From an uncultured Syntrophomonadaceae bacterium (lineage in GTDB: Bacteria; Bacillota; Dethiobacteria; DTU022), in assembly GCA_964441025.1 (NCBI GenBank), contig CAYTXG010000003.1, forward strand, positions 63,527 through 127,526: a stretch of DNA of 64,000 nt. Direction: 5' to 3'. Numbering within the stretch: the first letter of the stretch is position 1; each line of letters opens with the position of its first letter. Position numbers and translations under genes: made by a program. Shown here in pieces: positions 12,002-63,111 of the stretch. The notes beneath the pieces were generated by a model. The model ran no database searches. It was not told the origin of the DNA and saw only the letters and a list, made by a program, of their open reading frames with translations.

Positions 12002-12454
12002 TCACCTCCGGGAATATACTCCTTCATCACCTGCAGCCATTCTATCATAAACTTTTTGCAGCGGCATAGATCCGCTGTTAACAATCCCCGGCACCGGCAC
12101 CGCCTCGGCAACCAGTTTCAGCAAGTCTTTTACATTGAAAGGTTTTTCCAGAACGCCTACTATATTTTCTTCCGCTTCAACCCGATCTGCAATTGCTTCC
12201 TTGTAACCTGTGACAAAAAGAATTTTCACATCATTATGATCCTGCCGGATCATCCGGGCTACTTCGAAACCATTCACCGCACCAAGTTTTATATCAATAA
12301 TTGCCAGGCGGGGACGGTAGCGGCTCACAGCACTGATTCCCCTCGCTGCATCACCGGCCACATCGCAGCTATAGTTACACATGGCCAGAACCTGCTGTAG
12401 TATCCAGCGGATGCCTTCATCATCATCAATTACCACTACATCAACGGAATCCAT
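12002..12454 (-). CDS. Single-domain response regulator (CheY/Spo0F-like receiver)
   Basis: 150 aa. VVVIDDDEGIR...AIIDIKLG...LFVTGY...EKPF; the acidic pocket, phospho-Asp, Thr and Lys are all present. No output domain. Confidence 0.8.
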   Translation of the reverse strand: MDSVDVVVIDDDEGIRWILQQVLAMCNYSCDVAGDAARGISAVSRYRPRLAIIDIKLGAVNGFEVARMIRQDHNDVKILFVTGYKEAIADRVEAEENIVGVLEKPFNVKDLLKLVAEAVPVPGIVNSGSMPLQKVYDRMAAGDEGVYSRR

Positions 12455-27521: not shown

Positions 27522-27622
27522 AAGATGGTGCCAAGGGGGGGCCGGGCGTACCCGGCTGAGATAGAACTGAGCTGTTCTGACCCTTCGAACCTGACCTGGG
27601 TAATGCCAGCGTAGGGAACATA
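27522..27622 (+). promoter_or_regulatory. TPP (thi-box) riboswitch
   Basis: GGGGGGCCGGGCGUACCCGGCUGAGA...GACCCUUCGAACCUGACCUGGGUAAUGCCAGCGUAGGGAA matches the THI element consensus, including CUGAGA and AAUGCCAGCGUAGGGAA. Confidence 0.9.
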
Positions 27623-27639
27623 CTTGCCGCCTTGATCAT

Positions 27640-28515: not shown

Positions 28516-29538
28516 ATGTTCCGGACAATCAATGCAAGCAGAAGAAGACTTGTGTGGAAAACAGTGCTTCTCCTGATCCTTTTAACCGGCCTGGCTGCAG
28601 GAGCGGGATGCGCCGGGAGGGAAACACCGGCGCTCGACGAGGTTACCGTTCTCCTGGATTGGACTCCGAATACCAACTACAGCGGTCTTTTTGCAGCAAG
28701 GGATAAAGGATACTACCTGGAGGAAGGCCTTGAGGTAAAGATCGAGGAAGCGGGGGCCAATGTGCTGCCCCTTGTGGCTACAGATAAAGCGCAATTTGGG
28801 GTAAGTTACCAGGAACAGGTTACATTTGCCCGACTGAATGATAATATCCCCGTTGTTTCCATTGCTGCGGTAGTGCAGCACAACAGCTCCGGGTTTGCTT
28901 CGCTCAGGGAAAAAGGAATCAATTCTGTTGTCGATTTTGAAGGCAAAAGCTACGGCAGCTGGGGGACGGAAGTGGAGGAGGCTACCATTAAAGCGCTGAT
29001 GGATAAAGAGGGAGCCGATTTTGACAGCGTCAGCATCGTCACTATCGGGGAGACCGATCTTTTTGCAGTTATTGAAAAGCTGGCCGACTTTGCCTGGATC
29101 TATTACGGCTGGGACGGCATCGCCGCTGAACAGAAAGGGGCGGAGCTGGATTTCATTCCCCTGCGAGATCTGGACCCGTCTTTCGATTACTATACACCCG
29201 TCATCATCAGCAGCGAAACGCTCATCAATGAGCATCCCGACCTAGTTGAAAGATTTATGCGGGCAACAGCAAAAGGCTACCGCCTGGCTATTGACAGCCC
29301 CGAAGAGGCGGCGGAAATACTGCTGCGTAATGTCCCGGAACTTGACGGCGATCTGGTCAGAGCCAGCCAGGACTGGCTGAAAGATAAATACAGTGACGAT
29401 GCTGAAATATGGGGTCTGCAGAAGAAAGAGGTCTGGGAAAATTACAGCCGCTGGCTTCTTGAGCGCGGGCTTGTTGACAGGATGCTCGATGTGGACAAGG
29501 CTTTTACCAACAGGTTTATTCTGGGGAAAGCGGATTGA
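28516..29538 (+). CDS. NMT1/THI5-like substrate-binding lipoprotein (HMP/FAMP-binding, ThiY-like)
   Basis: Lipobox LAAGAGC. LDWTPNTNYSGLFAARDKGYY... NMT1/THI5 signature. Confidence 0.8.
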   Translation: MFRTINASRRRLVWKTVLLLILLTGLAAGAGCAGRETPALDEVTVLLDWTPNTNYSGLFAARDKGYYLEEGLEVKIEEAGANVLPLVATDKAQFGVSYQEQVTFARLNDNIPVVSIAAVVQHNSSGFASLREKGINSVVDFEGKSYGSWGTEVEEATIKALMDKEGADFDSVSIVTIGETDLFAVIEKLADFAWIYYGWDGIAAEQKGAELDFIPLRDLDPSFDYYTPVIISSETLINEHPDLVERFMRATAKGYRLAIDSPEEAAEILLRNVPELDGDLVRASQDWLKDKYSDDAEIWGLQKKEVWENYSRWLLERGLVDRMLDVDKAFTNRFILGKAD

Positions 29539-29705
29539 GCAGCCCCGTAAAATATGAATGGTAACCTTTAGACAGGTACCCTGCGCGCCCTTGCCTTTGG
29601 TGCAATTGAGGCCCACCCCCCTGCGCACGGTCCCCGGCAGGAGGGCGGGAAAGCATGAATAAATTCAAAGGGGCGGGCCAGTCCCCCCCCCGGAGGGTAT
29701 GTGTA

Positions 29706-30476
29706 ATGAAAACAGCAGGGCTGCAGCTGGAGGATGTCAGCTCAAGCTATCACTTTGGAAATGAAAGCCTGCCTGTGCTAAAAAACATCTCGATCACCCT
29801 GGGCGCGGGCGAGTTTGTTGCGCTGCTCGGCCCCAGCGGCTCCGGTAAAAGTACCCTGTTAAGGATCGCCGCCGGGCTGCTCAAACCCGACAGGGGCCGG
29901 GTGCTCCTTGAGGGTCGGGATATTACCGGGCATGCCGCCCGGGTCGGCTACATGCCGCAGCAGGACCTTTTATTTCCCTGGAAAACACTGCTCCAAAATG
30001 CCGCGCTGCCGCTGTTGAGCGCCGGCCTGTCCGCAGAGGAGGCCCGCGCCCGTGTCTCTGCACTGCTGCCCGTTTTCGGCCTTGACGGTTTTGCCTTATA
30101 CTACCCTGATCGCCTGTCGGGGGGTATGAGGCAGCGGGCAGCACTGCTGCGCACTATTCTAATGGAGGGCAGCCTGCTGCTCCTTGATGAGCCTTTTGCT
30201 GCGCTCGATGCTCTCACCCGGGAAAACCTGCAGGGGTGGCTGCTGCAAATTTTAAGCCGTTTTCAAAAAGCGGTTCTCTTTGTAACTCACAGCGTCGACG
30301 AGGCGATCTATCTGGCCGACCGTATCTATATGATCTCGGAGCGCCCGGGCCGGATCATCCTGGAGATGAGGGTTGATCTGCCCCGGCCCCGCTCCCGCAG
30401 CGTGGTCACAACACCCCTGTTCACCTCATACAGGCAGGCGCTGATGGAGGCGCTCGCAAAAACGCCAACGGCGTAA
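29706..30476 (+). CDS. ABC transporter ATP-binding protein of the thi transporter
   Basis: Walker A GPSGSGKST, signature LSGGMRQR, Walker B LLLDEPF. GGAGGG RBS before the internal ATG at 29706. Confidence 0.85.
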   Translation: MKTAGLQLEDVSSSYHFGNESLPVLKNISITLGAGEFVALLGPSGSGKSTLLRIAAGLLKPDRGRVLLEGRDITGHAARVGYMPQQDLLFPWKTLLQNAALPLLSAGLSAEEARARVSALLPVFGLDGFALYYPDRLSGGMRQRAALLRTILMEGSLLLLDEPFAALDALTRENLQGWLLQILSRFQKAVLFVTHSVDEAIYLADRIYMISERPGRIILEMRVDLPRPRSRSVVTTPLFTSYRQALMEALAKTPTA

Positions 30477-30615
30477 ACAGATCCACGGGGCGGCAGAAAA
30501 TCAGGGTCCCCCAAGCCGGCCCGGTATAATGCAGAGAGCGCGGTGCAGACATGACAGCGCCAAATTTCCAGGTGATGCCGGGCCGTGAGGAACCCCTTTA
30601 AAAAAAATGAACCCA

Positions 30616-30683
30616 CAGAATATATCAGTAGAACCGTCCCCGTGATATACAGAATATATCAGAAGAACCGTCCCCCTGATATA
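30616..30683. repeat. 34-bp tandem direct repeat x2; the second copy encodes the last 8 codons and stop of the TPK gene
   Basis: CAGAATATATCAGTAGAACCGTCCCCGTGATATA / CAGAATATATCAGAAGAACCGTCCCCCTGATATA. Confidence 0.8.
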
Positions 30684-31330
30684 CGGGCGGTGTGGACGGC
30701 CAGGAGCAGGCCCGAGGCCGCAGTAACTCTGGCTGTTTCAGAAATCAGCTCATTGCTCAAACCGCGGGTGGAGGCAAAGTTAAGGGTCTCTCCGTGAAGG
30801 GGATACTTCAGCCCCTGCGTGGTGACACCCCTTGTCTCCGGGGTAAGCGAAAACAGGGAGAGATAGTCGCCTGCCCGACCAAACTGGATCAGCTCGTGAT
30901 CCATGAGCCGCACCGTCTGCCGCTCATCAATAATCCTGGCTGGAATACCGGCTCTGAAGGGAATTGTCAGCAGGAAAAGGTTGATCAGGGCATGGTCGAC
31001 CCTTTTTCCTCCCAGGGCGCCGCATAGAATAATTTCCGCCGGCCGGAACGATACGGCATAGTGAAGGGCCATCTCCAGATCCGACTGCTCCTGATCCAGG
31101 AGAGGGTTGCAGATCCATTCCACCGGTAACTGCTGCAGTTTTCGGCGCAGCGCAGGGTCAAGGGAGTCGCTGTCACCGATCACCGAGGAGGGGTGCATCC
31201 CCATGGCCAGCACATGACGGCTCCCCCCGTCTGCACAGATAATCCGGTCTTCCCGGTTGATCTGTCCGCGGTAGAAATCAGGATCACATAAGTCACCGTT
31301 GGCAAATAGAAAAATCCGCCGGCCCCTCAT
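30659..31330 (-). CDS. thiN: Thiamine pyrophosphokinase
   Basis: 223 aa. ICADGG...VIGDSDSL (GDxDS motif) and a C-terminal thiamine-binding domain. Confidence 0.75.
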   Translation of the reverse strand: MRGRRIFLFANGDLCDPDFYRGQINREDRIICADGGSRHVLAMGMHPSSVIGDSDSLDPALRRKLQQLPVEWICNPLLDQEQSDLEMALHYAVSFRPAEIILCGALGGKRVDHALINLFLLTIPFRAGIPARIIDERQTVRLMDHELIQFGRAGDYLSLFSLTPETRGVTTQGLKYPLHGETLNFASTRGLSNELISETARVTAASGLLLAVHTARISGGRFF

Positions 31331-38256: not shown

Positions 38257-40047
38257 TCAGGCATAAAGCTTTTCAATCTGATCCAGATAGTTATCCAGCA
38301 CGACCCGCCGCTTGACCTTCATCGTCTGCGTAAGCATGCGATTTTCAATGGAGAAATCCTCCTCCAAAAAGACAAACTTCTTTGGAATTTCATAGCTGCC
38401 GAAACTATCTTTTAAAAAGGCGGTGATCTCCTGCTCCACCATTGCGGTGAACTCTCTGTTTGCCAGAAGCTCCCGCGGATCATTGGAAAAGCCCTTTTCT
38501 GCAGCCCAGCGGGCAGTTACCTCAAAGTCGGGAACAACCAGGCAGACATTAAATGGCCTGCCGTCGCCGTAAATCATGGCATTGGCTACCCGGGGGATGA
38601 GTTTGATCTCTTCTTCAATCGCCGCAGGGAAGACATATTTTCCGTTTAGCAGCTTGTACTGCTCCTTGATCCGTCCTGTAATCCAGAGATAACCATCTTC
38701 ATCCAGGTAACCGCGGTCTCCCGTCCGGAGGCCGCCGTCGGAAGTCATCACTTCGGCGGTCTGTGAAGGTTTGTCATGATAGCCTCTCATGATATTGGGA
38801 CCGTACACAATTACTTCGCCGTCGGCGGCGCCCTCTTCAACTGCAGAGCTGTCGATAACCACCCTTTGCCCTTCCAACACCATGCCCACACTGCCGAGGC
38901 GCCAGTTTTTCCGGCTGTTCATGGTTACCGCAGGGGCGGTCTCGGTAAGGCCGTAACAGTCGTATATGGGCACCCCCACATCATCAAAGAATTCAGCAAT
39001 TTCCTTGTTCATCACCGCGCTGGCGGTAAGGGAACCGACTACCCTGCCGCCCAGAGCAGCCCTGATCTTTGAAAAAACCAGGCGGTCCAGAAGGGAAAAT
39101 TGCAAATTGATCAGGAGCCTTGATTTCCCCCGCCCGGCCAATGCTCTTTTCTTTTTGGCAACTGCACAGGCTGCGTCGAAGAGTTTCTTCTTGATACCTC
39201 CCGCTTCCCTCATCTGCATCTGGATGCCGTCATATATCTTGTTGAAGAGACGGGGCACACAGATCAGGTAATGCGGCCGGACTCTTTTGATATCCTCAGT
39301 CAAGGTGGTCACATCTCTCATGAAGCCGATGGCCCCGCCAAACTGGATCCAGTTGTTGATCTCGGCGCTGAGGGCGTAGGAGTGCGCCCAGGGCAGCATG
39401 GAGATGGCCACGCACTCTTCATTGAGTTCGGGATAGATCTTGTAGCCCGCTTTGGAGCAGTAGGTCAGATTCCCATGGGTCAGGAGCACCCCTTTAGGTT
39501 CGGCAATTGTCCCGGAAGTGTATATAAGCACCGCAATATCATCATGATGGGGTATATCCGGCGCAGCGGGGTTCTCCCGACCGGACTTTTCAAGGGCGGC
39601 CAGGCTGTTCTCCCCTTCCCATTCCATGATATAGATATGCTCGAGGGTCTTGATCTCCCCGGGAAAATCCTTCACCTTTTCATAGATTTCCGGTGTTGAA
39701 ACAAGAAGGAATTTTACAGCGCTGTCCCTGATGATATATTTCCATGTTTGCGCCAGTTCCTGCTCATACATGGGCACATAGCGGGCCCTGCGTCCGTAAG
39801 CAGCAAAGGCGAGAACCACCCATTCGGGCCGGTTCGATGAAATGATCCCCACAGCATCCCCCTGTCCAATCCCCAGCCGGGCCAGGCCGCCGCGGGCGTC
39901 GTCAATGCGGCTGCCGATTTCCCCGTAAGTGATGGGATCAAGGGAGCCCCTCTCGTTATGCATCCAGAAAAGGACATTGTTTTTGTATTTCTTTGCGCTC
40001 TCCATCCACCATTCGACAAGGTTGTCCGGCTTTTCATAGATCCACAT
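38257..40047 (-). CDS. Long-chain fatty-acid--CoA ligase (AMP-dependent synthetase)
   Basis: 596 aa. AMP-binding motif LIYTSGTIAEPKGVLLTHGNL. GGAGGG RBS. Confidence 0.85.
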   Translation of the reverse strand: MWIYEKPDNLVEWWMESAKKYKNNVLFWMHNERGSLDPITYGEIGSRIDDARGGLARLGIGQGDAVGIISSNRPEWVVLAFAAYGRRARYVPMYEQELAQTWKYIIRDSAVKFLLVSTPEIYEKVKDFPGEIKTLEHIYIMEWEGENSLAALEKSGRENPAAPDIPHHDDIAVLIYTSGTIAEPKGVLLTHGNLTYCSKAGYKIYPELNEECVAISMLPWAHSYALSAEINNWIQFGGAIGFMRDVTTLTEDIKRVRPHYLICVPRLFNKIYDGIQMQMREAGGIKKKLFDAACAVAKKKRALAGRGKSRLLINLQFSLLDRLVFSKIRAALGGRVVGSLTASAVMNKEIAEFFDDVGVPIYDCYGLTETAPAVTMNSRKNWRLGSVGMVLEGQRVVIDSSAVEEGAADGEVIVYGPNIMRGYHDKPSQTAEVMTSDGGLRTGDRGYLDEDGYLWITGRIKEQYKLLNGKYVFPAAIEEEIKLIPRVANAMIYGDGRPFNVCLVVPDFEVTARWAAEKGFSNDPRELLANREFTAMVEQEITAFLKDSFGSYEIPKKFVFLEEDFSIENRMLTQTMKVKRRVVLDNYLDQIEKLYA

Positions 40048-40204
40048 AGGTGTTCCCTCCGGTTTGAATGTAGTCCCCTGCCAATTAAGAAACGCTCCGT
40101 TGGAGAAGACAATTGGAAGTATTGCTCCTATTGCCCACCTTCAAACTTCAACAAATCTTGATTACTTCCTTCTTTACCTAAAACTTTGAGTCATGAGTGA
40201 GTCA

Positions 40205-40225
40205 GGGGGACGGTGACTTTGACTC
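40205..40225 (-). repeat. Copy of the dispersed GAGTCAAAGTCACCGTCCCCC motif (reverse orientation), inside a TGAGTCA-rich region upstream of the CoA-ligase gene
   Basis: Plus strand GGGGGACGGTGACTTTGACTC. The 15-mer CAAAGTCACCGTCCC also occurs at 60474..60492 and 60533..60548. Confidence 0.5.
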
Positions 40226-40471
40226 ATCTTGAGAGACGGGGCGAACCCGCAATCCAGAAGGGCATTCCAGCAACAGCGGAGCGGGGCGCCGGCCCCGCCC
40301 GCATATGAAAGGCGCTGACAGATTTGGGCCGGTCATGACCGGCCCCAACATTTTTGGAGGAACGGTGGTGCGGCAACACCGCGGCTTACGGGGTCAAGCT
40401 GGCGCCGGGCTTTTATGCTGCAGGCAAAATACATTTATTATTTGAAAGGGCGGTAAGCAGAATTCCCGCTG

Positions 40472-59179: not shown

Positions 59180-60349
59180 ATGCTCAGATATCCCTTTACA
59201 TTCCCCAAGGTCGGCGGGCGACTGGTCAGGCGGGTAAACCGCTTCGTGGTGGAGGCCGATATTGACGGCCGGCGGGTGCAGGCTTACCTGGCCAATCCCG
59301 GACGGCTGTGGGAGTTGCTTGTACCGGGCACCGCCCTTCTGCTCAGCCCCTCTCTCTCCAGGGGCAGACTCCCATACACCGTGCTGGCCTGTGAAGCAAA
59401 AAACGGCTCTGTCCTGTTGCACACTCACCTGACCAACACCGTTGTCCGCAGCCTCATTGATGATCAAAGACTCCCCCCCTACAGGAATTACCGGATCATC
59501 AAATCGGAACCGGCAGTGGGCGAACACCGTTTTGATCTGCTTCTGGAACAGAGGCAAAGCGGCAAGCGCTATTACCTGGAGATCAAAAGCGTGACCCTTT
59601 TTGAAAGCCAAACAGCCATGTTCCCAGATGCCGTCACCGCAAGAGGCGCCGCCCATCTCCGCCTGCTAAAAGAGCTGACCGGACAAGGCCTTAATGCCGG
59701 TTGCATCTTTGTGATCATGAACCCGCAGGTAAAATATTTTCTTCCCGCCTATCATGTTGATTACATTTTTGCCCAAACCGTTCTCGATGTGAGAGATTCG
59801 GTGCAGCTGAATGCTGTCGCTCTCGGCTTTGACGCTGCCTTTACCGGGGTGACATCCGTCGAAAAGGCGGAAATCCCCTACAGCTTTCTGGAGAGAGAGC
59901 TGCATGACCGGGGAGCATACCTGCTGCTGCTGTACATGGATGGGCGAAAAGTGATCGCCTTGCCGGACGGAAAGGATCTGGAACTCCAGGAAGGCTGCTA
60001 TGTATATGCCGGCCGGGCGTCAGCAGATCTGATGAGCGAGATGGCCCGCCACAGACGAAAAAAGAAGAAGAAAAGGGCGCCCATCGATTACCTGACTGCT
60101 GCGGCCGATAGGATCACCCCTGTACCGATAATCACCGGCGAGAACCTGGAGCACCAGTTGGTTGCCGGTCTGGAGGAAATGGGCGGCAAAGCTGTGGAAT
60201 GGTCCGGCTCCCCGGGAGCCCAAAACAGCAGCAGGCTATTTTACTTTGCCGCGGATCCCCTGCACAACCGCGCCTTCATTGATCTGATCCTGCATTATCG
60301 AATCGGCAGGCCTGAGCAGAGACTAATAGCCCGAAAGAATGTGCCCTGA
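59180..60349 (+). CDS. sfsA: SfsA nuclease-family protein fused to a C-terminal DUF123 / GIY-YIG-like domain
   Basis: N-terminal ~235 aa: RVNRFVVEADIDGRRVQAYLANPGRL...IFAQT (SfsA). C-terminal ~150 aa: GCYVYAGRASADL...ARHRRKKKKKRAPIDYL (DUF123-like). Confidence 0.7.
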   Translation: MLRYPFTFPKVGGRLVRRVNRFVVEADIDGRRVQAYLANPGRLWELLVPGTALLLSPSLSRGRLPYTVLACEAKNGSVLLHTHLTNTVVRSLIDDQRLPPYRNYRIIKSEPAVGEHRFDLLLEQRQSGKRYYLEIKSVTLFESQTAMFPDAVTARGAAHLRLLKELTGQGLNAGCIFVIMNPQVKYFLPAYHVDYIFAQTVLDVRDSVQLNAVALGFDAAFTGVTSVEKAEIPYSFLERELHDRGAYLLLLYMDGRKVIALPDGKDLELQEGCYVYAGRASADLMSEMARHRRKKKKKRAPIDYLTAAADRITPVPIITGENLEHQLVAGLEEMGGKAVEWSGSPGAQNSSRLFYFAADPLHNRAFIDLILHYRIGRPEQRLIARKNVP

Positions 60350-60473
60350 AAATTGAACCGCCATCGCGGGCCGGGGTGGAACCCGGCCCCTACAAATTCA
60401 ACCGTTGTATCCCCGCGGACAGAATGTAATGCCGCCCTGCTCGCTTGACCGCTGCCGGCTGCACCTTCAGAAC

Positions 60474-60492
60474 GAGTCAAAGTCACCGTCCC
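60474..60492 (+). repeat. Dispersed repeat GAGTCAAAGTCACCGTCCC (copy 2)
   Basis: 19/19 identical to the reverse complement of 40207..40225. Confidence 0.5.
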
Positions 60493-60508
60493 TGTAACTC
60501 ACGGCTGC

Positions 60509-61195
60509 TCAGCTATGTTCCTTCTCTCCAGCCAAAGTCACCGTCCCCGCGGCTGGTTTGAAGTAGAGGGCGCCGCTGGGGCAGGATTCAACGCAAAGGC
60601 CGCATTCATTGCAGCCGGAACGGGCCAGGCTGACATCCTGAAATGTAGTCACCACGCGCCTGATGCCGCGGCGGGAAAAACCAAGGGCGCCTATCTTGGC
60701 CACCTCGCGGCAGATCCAAACGCAGCGACCGCAGAGAAGGCAACGGCTGCGGTCAAACACAAAGGTTCCAGCGCTGTCATCAACATGGGAATCATATTCC
60801 AGCGGCGCCAGGCGATCCAGCTTCATCTTCAAACCTCTTGCCTTTGCAATTTGCAGCAGCGAGCAGCTCTTTCTTCTCGGACAGCTTCCGCATCCAAGGC
60901 GGTGATTGCTCAGAAGCAGCTCAAAGGCGCTTTTCACCAGGCGGTCCACCTGCGGGCTCCGCGTCCGCACGGAAAGGCCCTCTTTGACAGGCAGCGTGCA
61001 GGAGGTAACGGGCTCGTCGCGGCCTTCAACCTGGACATAGCAGAGGCGGCAACTGCCCGAAGGGTGATCCTTCCCTTTAATGGCACAGAGATTGGGAATA
61101 AAGATACCGTTGTCCAGCGCCACCCAGAGCAGCTTCGCTCCTTCGGGAGCGGTGATTTCGCGGCCGTCAATAATAATAGTGACCCCTTTGCTCAT
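60509..61195 (-). CDS. NuoG / HydA / FdhA N-terminal-fragment-like Fe-S protein ([2Fe-2S] + His-ligated [4Fe-4S] + 2x[4Fe-4S]) with no catalytic domain
   Basis: MSKGVTIIIDGREITAPEG...C..C..C. NHRLGCGSCPRRKSC. CLLCGRCVWIC and CNECGLCVESCP. Start ATG overlaps the NuoF-like stop (ATGA). Confidence 0.8.
   Translation of the reverse strand: MSKGVTIIIDGREITAPEGAKLLWVALDNGIFIPNLCAIKGKDHPSGSCRLCYVQVEGRDEPVTSCTLPVKEGLSVRTRSPQVDRLVKSAFELLLSNHRLGCGSCPRRKSCSLLQIAKARGLKMKLDRLAPLEYDSHVDDSAGTFVFDRSRCLLCGRCVWICREVAKIGALGFSRRGIRRVVTTFQDVSLARSGCNECGLCVESCPSGALYFKPAAGTVTLAGEKEHS
60533..60548 (+). repeat. Dispersed repeat CAAAGTCACCGTCCCC (copy 3), inside the 3' end of the Fe-S protein gene
   Basis: Shares the 15-mer CAAAGTCACCGTCCC with the copies at 40.2 kb and 60.47 kb. 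Confidence 0.5.
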
Positions 61196-63111
61196 GAGCC
61201 CTTCCTCTCTTTCTCCGCCAGCAGCCCGGGCGGCGACAGCTTGATCACGGCGTTGTAGTCGGGTGGGCAGGTCTTCAGGCAGTTGTCGCATTTGACGCAC
61301 TTGTCCTGGTCAATGGCTTTAAGGCCGTCATCGCGGGTAAAGACCGCCTCGGTGGGGCAACTGCCCACGCAGACGCTGCAAAGCTTGCTGCACATCTGCG
61401 GTTCAATATAGTAGACAATGAGCTCCTTGCACATGAGCGCCGGGCATCGTTTCTCCCTGATGTGGATCTCGTATTCATCCCGAAAGTAGCGCAGAGTGGT
61501 CAGGACCGGGTTGGGCGCCGTTGCACCCAGGTTGCAGAGAGAACCGGTGCGAACATCTTCGGCCAGCTCCTCCAGAATTTCCAGAGAGCCGGGCTTGCCC
61601 CGGCCTTCTGTAATGTCAGTTAAAATATCAAGCATCTGCTTTGTTCCCAGGCGGCAGAATGTGCACTTGCCACACGATTCCTTCTGGGTAAACTCCAGAA
61701 AATACCGGGCGATAGCCACCATGCAGTCATCCTCGTCGAGAACAACAAGTCCTCCCGAACCCATAATCGCCCCCGCCTCCTGCAACGAATCAAAGTCGAT
61801 GGGTATATCTAGAGCAGACTCGGGGAGGCAGCCCCCGGAAGGGCCGCCGATCTGGGCCGCTTTGAATTTTTTCTCATTGGCCAGCCCCTCACCAACATCG
61901 AAGATCAGCTGGCGGAGGGTTGTCCCCATGGGCACCTCCACCAGCCCGGTATGAGCCACCTTGCCCACCAGGGAGAAGACGGCGGTGCCGGGGCTGTCAT
62001 CGGTGCCGATGCTCCTGAACCAGTGAGCGCCCCGGTTGAGTATGGGCGGGACATAAGCAAAGGTCTTGACATTATTCAGCACCGTGGGCCGGCCGCGGAA
62101 GCCCGACTGGGCCAGGCGTGGCGGGCGTGTTGCCGGGATCCCCATTTTCCCCTCCATGGATCGGACCAGGGCGGATGATTCACCGCAGACAAAAGCCCCC
62201 GAACCCCGAAATATCTCCATCTCGCAGCTAAAAGAGCTGCCCAGGATATGTTCGCCCAGCAGCCCCCTTGCCCGCGCCTGCTCCAGAGCACGGCGGATCC
62301 GGCTTACGGCAAGGGGGTACTCGGCCCGGATATAAAAATAGCACTTCGCCGCACCCACGGTATAGGCGCAAAGAAGCATCCCCTCGATGACCTGGTGAGG
62401 GCAGGACTCAAGAATGCTGCGGTCCATGAAGGCCCCGGGATCACCCTCATCGCCATTGCAGATAACATACTTTTCACCGGGGCCGGCATTAACGGCAGCT
62501 TCCCATTTCAACCCCGTCGGGAAGCCGGCCCCGCCGCGCCCGCGGAGATGCGACTCCTTCACCGTCTCCAGAACCCGGGCCGGATCTGCCGCCAGAGCCG
62601 AAGCCAGGGCGCTGTACCCGCCCCGAGCGATATAATGATCGATATCCCCGGGATCAATAAAGCCGCAGTGCTCAAGAACTATTTTTTGCTCGTAAACGCC
62701 GCGGGGAAAATCGCTGAAAGTGGGAAAAACATCGTTCGCCTCCAGCGCCACCATAGCGAATTCATAGCAGGGATCATCATGGATTAAAAAATCTTCGACC
62801 AGCCGCCCGGCCAGGTCCTCGTCCGCATAACCATAACAGAGGGAGGGGAAACCGGGCTTGGAAATAATCACCAGCGGCTCGGCATAGCAGTGGCCCATGC
62901 AGCCGACCTCGATCACTTTAGCCGCAACGCCCTTTTCTTCAATAATCCCGGTAAAAGCATCTTTTACCTGCACAGCGCCGGCGGCGATGCCGCAGGTAGC
63001 CGTTCCCACGCGGATCACCGGCTCATCATAAAGGGCCTTTTTCGCGGCGGCGGCATCGCGCTCCAGCTTGCCGTATCTTTCGCGGATGGCGGAAAGCTGA
63101 TCCCCCGTCAT
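61192..63111 (-). CDS. NuoF-like NAD(H)-binding flavoprotein subunit (HydB/HndC type, with N-terminal thioredoxin-like [2Fe-2S] and C-terminal 2x[4Fe-4S])
   Basis: 639 aa. GRGGAGFPTGLKW (FMN site), an NADH-binding Gly motif (CNGDEGDPGAF), ESCGKCTFCR, and C-terminal ferredoxin motifs. Confidence 0.9.
   Translation of the reverse strand: MTGDQLSAIRERYGKLERDAAAAKKALYDEPVIRVGTATCGIAAGAVQVKDAFTGIIEEKGVAAKVIEVGCMGHCYAEPLVIISKPGFPSLCYGYADEDLAGRLVEDFLIHDDPCYEFAMVALEANDVFPTFSDFPRGVYEQKIVLEHCGFIDPGDIDHYIARGGYSALASALAADPARVLETVKESHLRGRGGAGFPTGLKWEAAVNAGPGEKYVICNGDEGDPGAFMDRSILESCPHQVIEGMLLCAYTVGAAKCYFYIRAEYPLAVSRIRRALEQARARGLLGEHILGSSFSCEMEIFRGSGAFVCGESSALVRSMEGKMGIPATRPPRLAQSGFRGRPTVLNNVKTFAYVPPILNRGAHWFRSIGTDDSPGTAVFSLVGKVAHTGLVEVPMGTTLRQLIFDVGEGLANEKKFKAAQIGGPSGGCLPESALDIPIDFDSLQEAGAIMGSGGLVVLDEDDCMVAIARYFLEFTQKESCGKCTFCRLGTKQMLDILTDITEGRGKPGSLEILEELAEDVRTGSLCNLGATAPNPVLTTLRYFRDEYEIHIREKRCPALMCKELIVYYIEPQMCSKLCSVCVGSCPTEAVFTRDDGLKAIDQDKCVKCDNCLKTCPPDYNAVIKLSPPGLLAEKERKGS

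Follow-up and report, generated by a model that had tools for sequence, protein, structure and literature searches.

Loop-tagged hairpin repeats, probably of the REP type, and an associated RAYT transposase in a Syntrophomonadaceae-like lineage of Bacillota

A 15-mer (CAAAGTCACCGTCCC) recurring in a 64,000-nt stretch of DNA from an uncultured Syntrophomonadaceae bacterium (contig CAYTXG010000003.1; the whole 64-kb stretch is called the window, and its positions are counted from its first letter) is most likely the core of a family of repetitive extragenic palindromic (REP)-like elements, accompanied by a REP-associated tyrosine transposase (RAYT), in a Syntrophomonadaceae-like lineage of Bacillota. 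Repeats and enzyme probably constitute a REP/RAYT system of an undescribed type, tagged in the loop and mostly arranged head-to-tail. The repeats are a gram-positive counterpart of the E. coli REPs, with the conserved motif lying in the loop of the hairpin and not at its foot. Nearly all detailed work on REP/RAYT systems concerns Proteobacteria. A first-pass annotation of the window had taken the motif to be REP-like or akin to a miniature inverted-repeat transposable element (MITE); this idea was right in kind, while the palindromic unit and the associated transposase were absent from it.

The 15-mer was found at three sites in the window, compared with 0.19 expected and with none of 100 shuffled sequences reaching three, which bears out the earlier statement that such a recurrence is far beyond chance; no further site appeared in the window at up to two mismatches. 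Its proposed extension to a 19-mer (GAGTCAAAGTCACCGTCCC) is exact for the copies at 40207-40225 (-) and 60474-60492 (+), while the third one (60529-60547) carries two mismatches. The two plus-strand copies of the 15-mer were measured to be 55 nt apart, start to start, and not 58 nt as first reported. The second of them (60533-60547) does fall within the final codons (the last 14) of the open reading frame (ORF) of an Fe-S protein (60509..61300, -), as noted then, and the copy in reverse orientation lies on the minus strand, 160 nt (about 150 nt in the first-pass annotation) 5' of an AMP-binding CoA-ligase gene starting at 40047. The gene context given there, with convergent SfsA and Fe-S genes and a CoA ligase, agreed with the ORFs and domain matches (Table 1).

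The dispersed family suspected from these copies was borne out by an exact scan for the 19-mer in one genome per species, which gave at least 103 loci in at least 23 assemblies; the loci L001-L103 and the 140 aligned copies come from the matches listed. All but two of the carrier assemblies are labelled as metagenome-assembled genomes (MAGs) of Bacillota, namely Syntrophomonadaceae, Syntrophaceticus, Thermacetogenium, Pelotomaculum and 'Clostridia DTU068'. The two exceptions among the listed carriers were a MAG of Ruminiclostridium and a contig placed, probably in error, in a Pseudomonadota bin. The largest number of loci from a single MAG was at least 16. The 19-mer was absent from viral contigs and the repeat unit from plasmids, and therefore no sign of phage or plasmid carriage was seen. 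Moreover, a full-text literature search for the repeat sequence strings returned unrelated primers only.

The piece shared by the 140 aligned copies was a 29-nt palindrome, TGAGTCA-AAGTCACCGTCCCC(T/C)-TGACTCA, surrounded by unrelated sequence. The alignment of flanks that had been proposed thus defined the boundary of the unit, while the conserved flanks anticipated there were not found, nothing being kept beyond 2 nt. The unit can be extended to 29-31 nt, (R)(G)TGAGTCA-AAGTCACCGTCCCC(T/C)-TGACTCA(C); among 111 intact units, the preceding base was T in all 111 and the following base was A in 99, and at two positions further out the bases were random. It presents a stem of 7-8 bp and a loop of 13-15 nt, in which the core CGTCCC is invariant. 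Folded as single-stranded DNA (ssDNA) with two flanking bases per side, the consensus formed a 10-bp stem with a 13-nt loop (-8.1 kcal/mol, z = -4.1). The tetranucleotides GTAG or GTGG were absent from the foot of the hairpin, where positions -1/-2 were T and G/A.

To define intergenic positions, long non-overlapping ORFs, covering about 83% of the DNA, were taken as a proxy for genes. By this measure, 116 of the 140 copies were intergenic, and most of the others touched a gene end. Among 75 classifiable copies, co-directional spacers accounted for 46, convergent for 23 and divergent for 6, and the orientation of the unit in co-directional spacers was balanced (26 vs. 20). Units favour the 3' ends of genes without strand preference, in agreement with the intergenic 3' siting first suggested. 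Both in form (a short stem-loop of 29 nt with a 7-8 bp stem) and in being mainly extragenic at no fewer than 103 loci, the units correspond to what is understood as a REP. Furthermore, an all-against-all clustering of the 605 ORFs of the unit-bearing loci revealed no recurrent neighbour gene.

Neighbouring units separated by up to 200 nt were head-to-tail in 22 pairs and inverted in two. Six pairs were exactly 22 nt apart, and therefore one arm is common to both units. In addition, 47 of 108 units (44%) had one to three extra copies of the 3' arm, (C)TTGACTCA, within 40 nt downstream, at times together with the end of the loop (GTCCCC-TTGACTCA), while an extra 5' arm upstream was found for 10 of 108 (9%). 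The rare inverted doublets (L045 5989-6036 and L032 191-275) read GGGGACGGTGACTTTGACTCA-8 nt-TGAGTCAAAGTCACCGTCCCC. In form they are close to REPINs, and it may be these that move, although head-to-tail pairs predominate.

Of the units in the window, three belong to the TGAGTCA/CCAGCC type and two to the TATATCA type. The 40.2-kb unit is intact and lies 3' of a 101-aa ORF and 5' of the CoA-ligase gene, all of them on the minus strand. The unit at 60473-60501 is decayed: its first base is C (T in 111/111 intact units), its 3' arm is mutated, and no stable hairpin was obtained for it as ssDNA (z = +0.6); homologous copies in L156 and L158 are likewise decayed. The neighbouring unit keeps the loop on another complementary stem (CCAGCC) and occurs also in L156 and L158, being duplicated in the latter. 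The 34-bp tandem repeat (30615-30684, 2.1 copies) occupies the spacer where the ABC-ATPase and thiamin pyrophosphokinase genes converge, and the 13-mer ACCGTCCCCCTGA that it was said to share with the 40.2-kb copy is real: the tandem repeat consists of two units from a sister stem family that has the loop core in common, hence the shared 13-mer. The motif ACCGTCCCC had five sites in the window (0.48 expected); the fifth, at 12310-12318 (-), lies within a response-regulator ORF (12002..12454) without hairpin or flanking inverted repeat, and it is probably a chance occurrence and no unit.

Other hairpins with the same geometry and loop core presented different stems, such as GTGACA, GGAAGCA, GTGGGACAA, TGAGCCA and TATATCA (the last one in the window). 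Pairing was scored at all 605 CGTCCC sites with the register held constant (two arms of 7 nt around a loop of 15 nt), and the result was bimodal, with a random-like peak at 1-2 pairs and a second one of 139 sites pairing at 7/7 and 77 at 6/7 positions, in which 35 different 5' arms were represented. Outside the main family, a hairpin of at least 6 bp was found at 42 of 245 CGTCCC sites (17.1%), compared with 187 of 12,933 sites (1.45%) for the same six letters in their 29 other orders. When one representative per arm was taken, all seven stem pairs varied on both sides; this covariation set was chosen for pairing, while the fixed-register scoring of the 605 sites is an unbiased, independent test. 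The consensus of the superfamily was nGnnnCA-(A/C)RAGnn(C)CGTCCC(C/T)n-TGnnnCn. In this superfamily, the sequence of the stem is free but complementary, whereas the loop retains its length and its CGTCCC core.

The lead to an enzyme came from a tblastn search with an E. coli YafM sequence, whose hits in L058 and L040 were then verified by Pfam, NCBIfam, PDB and fold searches; IS200 and IS608 queries gave nothing. Two ORFs, in L040 and L058, matched Pfam Y1_Tnp (PF01797) with E-values of 7e-16 to about 1e-15. The NCBIfam model of REP-associated tyrosine transposases (NF047646, cut-off 80) scored 80.2 bits for the L040 ORF and 75.8 bits, under the cut-off, for that of L058. Residues H66, H68 and Y125 did not vary across 37 homologues, and in the alignment they correspond to the HUH motif and the catalytic tyrosine of 4ER8. 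A search of the PDB with the single RAYT sequence gave no match and a profile was needed; with that of the 37 homologues, the best solved relative was E. coli TnpA-REP (4ER8). An AlphaFold (AF2) model of the RAYT reached a mean confidence (pLDDT) of 88, and its top match in the PDB by Foldseek was 4er8_A (E = 1.7e-8, target TM-score 0.74), the structure of a RAYT in complex with a REP hairpin, followed by IS200/IS605 transposases. The model also contained a helical C-terminal extension of ~110 residues, predicted as a five-helix domain; the C-terminal 116 residues had no Pfam match even at E <= 10, DnaA_C and helix-turn-helix (HTH) domains included. Judging from profile and model, the cognate enzyme appears to be a RAYT, that is, an HUH/Y1 ssDNA transposase of the IS200/IS605 superfamily, putatively domesticated. 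The enzyme family is large, with more than 7,700 homologues, already annotated as 'RayT'.

In both L040 and L058, one unit stands on each side of the RAYT gene in inverted orientation, and bracketing on both sides by inverted cognate repeats was likewise observed in L105, L108 and L116. The hairpins were oriented as expected in 12 of 13 cases upstream and 10 of 10 downstream. Moreover, L025 has a degraded RAYT gene beside a unit and L069 the end of a RAYT gene followed by a unit, and a RAYT remnant of any kind was found in 4 of the 103 unit-bearing loci. An independent test of the link was made by searching metagenome contigs with the RAYT protein, using no DNA motif, which yielded 48 RAYT loci. 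All six RAYTs at least 65% identical had a TGAGTCA unit 25-120 nt from a gene end. At 42-56% identity, the hairpins had the same loop and different stems: AACACAA on both sides in L116, and GTGTCAAG, AAGACA, AAAAAGC, TGTTACCA, GCAAG and AAACATA elsewhere. Read as terminal inverted repeats (TIRs), the RAYT flanks are 20-27 nt long and start with GGGGACGG. Flanks bearing the same loop, with other stems, were found in the complete genome of Ca. Formimonas warabiya and in a Sporomusa acidovorans contig. Overall, among RAYT loci at least 42% identical, 15 of 23 had GGGACG in the 200 nt upstream and 16 of 24 had CGTCCC in the 200 nt downstream, compared with 2 of 23 and 1 of 24, respectively, for the opposite hexamer orientation and with a background of 2-3% of 200-nt windows containing either hexamer. 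More distant RAYTs (33-38% identity, L129-L139, from rumen-type metagenomes) had other inverted repeats (ACCCCAGAGGTC; AACAAACTACCCCAGAGGTCGTTT) or none, without the CGTCCC core; therefore, the CGTCCC loop belongs to one clade and not to all RAYTs, and the inverted repeats of the distant group are probably another repeat family with its own enzyme. It was also observed that a tmRNA gene (tag ANNEYALAA) lies ~290 nt 5' of the RAYT gene in L040 (1788-2138, +) and also in L104, with units on both sides, the RAYT cassette thus adjoining ssrA, a classic integration hot spot.

The number of units was found to change among close relatives. In the orthologous convergent spacer between the Fe-S and SfsA genes, L159 and L152 have no unit, L154 has one, the window and L156/L157 have two, and L158 has three; the Fe-S proteins of L154 and L156-L159 belong to a 90%-identity cluster with that of the window and the L152 protein is 86% identical. 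With zero to three units at one site in such relatives, copy number is therefore dynamic. In addition, two genes of the window take their final codons and stop from a unit. The Fe-S protein of the window ends in ...ALYFK-PAAGTVTLAGEKEHS, its tail PAAGTVTLAG... being encoded by the minus strand of the CCAGCC unit, while homologues at 75-87% identity terminate at ALYFK or a few residues later. Within the 90% cluster, YFK was followed by the stop, by ESESSESRGR, by PATGTEALAG... or by PAAGTVTLAGKTARETGT, and the DNA homology between the window and L152 breaks off exactly at the start of the CCAGCC unit. For thiamin pyrophosphokinase (30659..31330), the last seven codons (ISGGRFF) and the stop are supplied by the minus strand of the second TATATCA unit, the domains of the protein ending at residue 209 of 223. 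Peptides such as ...MSQSHRPPDSL... and ...ESKSPSP recur in the ORF listings and are the translated repeat unit, which thus gives rise to spurious or lengthened ORFs.

Table 1. Coordinates of the repeat units, hairpins and genes in the window and in related loci.
Feature	Locus	Position	Strand	Sequence, basis or remark
CAAAGTCACCGTCCC copy	window	40207-40221	-	sequence search
CAAAGTCACCGTCCC copy	window	60478-60492	+	sequence search
CAAAGTCACCGTCCC copy	window	60533-60547	+	sequence search
Intact TGAGTCA-family unit	window	40198-40226	-	TGAGTCA-AAGTCACCGTCCCCC-TGACTCA; ssDNA fold: 7-bp stem, 15-nt loop
Extra 3'-arm copy after the 40.2-kb unit	window	40187-40193 (whole feature 40187..40226)	-	TGACTCA; sequence
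Decayed TGAGTCA-family unit	window	60473..60501	+	CGAGTCA-AAGTCACCGTCCCTG-TAACTCA; stem lost
Unit with same loop, other complementary stem	window	60528..60556	+	CCAGCC-AAAGTCACCGTCCCCGC-GGCTGG; 6-bp stem
TATATCA-family unit 1 (first tandem-repeat copy)	window	30621..30649	+	TATATCA-GTAGAACCGTCCCCG-TGATATA; sequence and fold
TATATCA-family unit 2	window	30655..30683	+	TATATCAG-AAGAACCGTCCCC-CTGATATA; sequence and fold
GC hairpin GGGCCGG..CCGGCCC	window	40326-40345		0.04 expected (both hairpins)
GC hairpin GGGCCGG..CCGGCCC	window	60368-60389		0.04 expected (both hairpins)
AMP-binding CoA ligase	window	38257..40047	-	ORF and domain matches
SfsA fused to DUF123	window	59180..60349	+	ORF and domain matches
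2Fe-2S/4Fe-4S protein, adjoins NuoF-like gene	window	60509..61300	-	ORF and domain matches
RAYT ORF	L040	2429-3205		258 aa; Pfam Y1_Tnp, NCBIfam
RAYT ORF	L058	2540-3298		252 aa; Pfam Y1_Tnp
Reiterated 3' arms	L004	6180-6240		example
Reiterated 3' arms	L066	467-540		example
Reiterated 3' arms	L007	3938-4080		example
Unit-derived ORF	L058	3456-3851		
Unit-derived ORFs	L040	1640-1882, 3352-3633		
Unit-derived ORF	L057	5008-5463		
Unit 5' of CoA-ligase gene	window	40198-40240		
Unit 5' of CoA-ligase gene	L052	2760-2821		
Unit 5' of CoA-ligase gene	L062	12-30		
Unit 5' of CoA-ligase gene	L082	78-110		

Regarding how the units may have spread, the RAYT would recognise the folded hairpin on transiently single-stranded DNA, reading the loop motif as E. 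coli TnpA-REP reads GTAG at the foot of its hairpin, and would then cut and rejoin the strand. Over time, units mobilised by the enzyme would spread, duplicate and be deleted in trans, persisting chiefly in non-essential DNA 3' of genes, while a unit landing on the 3' end of a gene would replace its last codons and stop. More tentatively, and with somewhat less confidence than an even balance would give, these hairpins may represent a third REP superfamily of 'loop-tagged' REPs across Bacillota, spanning Clostridia-type syntrophs, the Peptococcaceae-like Formimonas and Negativicutes such as Sporomusa, in which the RAYT would read no foot tetranucleotide but the CGTCCC that is invariant in a loop of 15 nt, and in which units would multiply singly, head-to-tail and with reiterated 3' arms. 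If this were true, it would imply a cut-and-copy chemistry unlike REPIN transposition, and the large RAYT clade with the C-terminal extension, for which earlier surveys found no repeats, would have its 'missing' ones.

Several observations weigh against a RAYT-mobilised REP family. The hairpins are weak as ssDNA (-4 to -8 kcal/mol) because the loop is large, and the predominance of head-to-tail pairs differs from the inverted REPIN doublets thought to be mobile in Pseudomonas. The 64-kb window contains no RAYT gene. Among highly similar locus pairs, no clean pair of empty and filled sites with exact junctions was recovered; L013 differs from the window by the presence or absence of a unit, in a spacer that has diverged too far to place the junctions exactly. 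Finally, L052 (gene 90% identical) keeps the 40.2-kb unit unchanged in an orthologous spacer that has otherwise diverged, and such perfect conservation could mean selection for a host function and not recent mobility; either selection or an enzyme-imposed constraint would account for it.

Among the alternatives, the ~150-nt composite MITE of the first-pass annotation, combining the motif with the GGGCCGG...CCGGCCC hairpin, deserves hardly any credence. The hairpins reported at both window loci were indeed found, on the same side of the motif and at a similar distance (about 90-105 nt), and L035 and L056 have a GC hairpin within ~110 nt of the unit. However, nothing is conserved more than 2 nt outside the 29-nt unit in 111-140 copies, the hairpin pattern occurs in just 3 of the 151 fetched loci, and units accumulate 3' of genes, where terminator-like hairpins also occur. 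In particular, the 60.37-kb hairpin (GGGGCCGGGTTCCACCCCGGCCC), directly 3' of sfsA, is kept at the orthologous place in L154, L156, L158 and the unit-free L159; that last orthologue refutes the composite element, and the hairpin is therefore older than, and separate from, the units beside it. In promoter and terminator scans of both loci, the sole terminator-like site was the GC hairpin at 40326. The GC hairpins are ordinary terminator-type hairpins, with the repeat units accumulated beside them. It is also very improbable that the units are operator sites, with a dimeric regulator binding TGAGTCA-N15-TGACTCA and a regulon including CoA-ligase and hydrogenase-type genes. The arms are inverted repeats at fixed spacing, the unit 5' of the CoA-ligase gene has stayed intact in L052 despite the diverged spacer, and units also precede the CoA-ligase homologues in L062 and L082, all of which would suit an operator. 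Nevertheless, the divergent, promoter-only spacers are the rarest class (6 of the 75 classifiable) and convergent 3' ends are common, the neighbour genes are unrelated across the 103 listed loci, copies extend into coding 3' ends, copy number varies between close relatives and units flank RAYT genes. Moreover, variable stems around a conserved unpaired loop are the opposite of a dimeric operator.

Host RNA elements kept by site selection (3'-end stabilisers, attenuators or protein-binding hairpins), for which the transposase link would be historical, are an unlikely explanation as well. The location of most units 3' of genes would suit them, E. coli REPs are generally known to stabilise upstream mRNA, and an orthologous conserved copy exists (L052). 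Against this, neither orientation relative to co-directional genes is preferred (26 vs. 20), and the units have no T-tract and no terminator call, present weak stems and include tolerated decayed copies such as 60473-60501; an Rfam search of the whole window gave no match at the repeats, its sole match being a thiamin pyrophosphate (TPP) riboswitch; and the inverted RAYT flanks and the head-to-tail arrays would be left unexplained. Similarly improbable is that the units are solo ends of an autonomous RAYT-carrying insertion sequence (IS; 'TIRtron'), left behind after the whole element moved or decayed. The RAYT flanks do read as 20-27 nt TIRs starting with GGGGACGG, near the TIRYT motif GGGGWSAS, and the degraded RAYT beside a unit in L025 would be a remnant of that kind, but units far outnumber RAYT genes (4/103 loci with any remnant), most copies are single or head-to-tail with 22-nt spacing and not inverted end pairs, and the window copies lack RAYT-derived sequence. 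DNA uptake sequences, Chi/KOPS-type polar motifs, CsrA-type GGA hairpins, CRISPR repeats and integron attC sites were set aside, because none of them would combine a variable stem with a conserved loop, a lack of strand polarity and RAYT flanks.

A REP/RAYT system being the preferred reading, its relation to known systems was considered. As in the proteobacterial ones (E. coli REP with TnpA-REP, 4ER8; Pseudomonas REPIN-RAYT), the units are palindromes of 20-40 nt in high copy, mostly extragenic and 3' of genes, sometimes intruding into gene ends; the HUH/Y1 gene is flanked by inverted units, enzyme and repeat co-evolve, and several families per genome are possible. In contrast, units of the window type have no GTAG/GTGG at the foot and carry an invariant CGTCCC in an unusually large loop of 13-15 nt, the 3' arm is often reiterated, the hosts are Bacillota and the enzyme bears the helical C-terminal extension of ~110 residues. 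Unlike in REPINs or bacterial interspersed mosaic elements (BIMEs), head-to-tail pairs (22) outnumber inverted ones (2), and a single clear doublet was seen (L045). IS200/IS605 subterminal hairpins (IS608, ISDra2) also serve Y1 HUH transposases, and the fold search groups the enzymes; recognition as ssDNA would apply here by analogy. However, their ends are direct, on one strand, and move with the transposase gene, whereas the flanks of the RAYT genes are inverted and the gene is far less numerous than the short units.

The nearest description is that of TIRYT/TIRtron elements (Di Nocera et al. 2013), with TnpA-Y1 subclass 2.1 (Quentin et al. 2018) as a candidate class for the enzyme; these likewise comprise RAYT-like genes with 20-27 nt inverted repeats, a C-terminal helical extension and moderately abundant dispersed copies. 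TIRYT inverted repeats share GGGGWSAS (Di Nocera et al. 2013), to which GGGGACGG fits at 7/8 positions (L108, L110, L113, L116, L119 and L128) and GGGGACAG at 8/8 (L117). Here, instead, the 7-8 nt outside each 'TIR' pair with its inner end, so that the 'TIR' amounts to the loop and one arm of its own hairpin. Quentin et al. (2018) reported finding no REP-like secondary structure in subclass 2.1. Concerning the trait of subclass 2.1.2 (a DnaA_C/HTH_23/HTH_28-like C-terminus), five helices were predicted here without a Pfam match at E <= 10. Group 1 RAYTs, which reach Clostridia, were weakly linked to repeated 16-mers (Bertels et al.), and two broad surveys mention no Firmicutes repeats and none for the RAYT subclass with a C-terminal DNA-binding extension. 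The CGTC-tagged REPs are palindromic extragenic repeats containing CGTC as well, with an unpaired tag at one end, an 8-9 bp stem, a 4-5 nt loop and a CCA tail, hosted mainly by Alphaproteobacteria and with no transposase associated (Di Nocera et al. 2013). An identity with these was rejected, the CGTC here being inside a 13-15 nt loop, with no CCA tail and with a transposase associated.

A large RAYT clade is now paired with its repeats, which are characterised by an invariant motif in a large loop, free stems and head-to-tail arrays, and which offer a defined substrate for asking how a Y1 HUH enzyme reads a hairpin. The units are also a marker of genome dynamics in hard-to-culture syntrophic oxidisers of acetate and fatty acids. 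As for annotation, they create altered or spurious 3' ends of genes (the Fe-S protein and thiamin pyrophosphokinase) and short false ORFs (...SQSHRP... peptides). Many of the fetched contigs had a unit within ~100 nt of the contig end, and repeat copies may break MAG assemblies.

Some further observations concern particular loci. A unit in the same orientation was found 130-185 nt 5' of long-chain-fatty-acid CoA-ligase genes in several related MAGs (Table 1), and between the window and L052 conservation runs ~15 nt past the unit (TCTTGAGAGACGGGG); the unit at this place may be an exapted regulatory site. The TPP riboswitch of the window (27524-27634, +; Rfam RF00059, 61.8 bits) lies 5' of an operon of an NMT1/THI5-like binding protein and an ABC-ATPase (28516..30476), opposite the thiamin pyrophosphokinase gene. 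Finally, SfsA (OB and nuclease domains) and a C-terminal DUF123 form one protein of 389 aa in the window, and this fusion is kept in the relatives L152, L154, L156 and L159.

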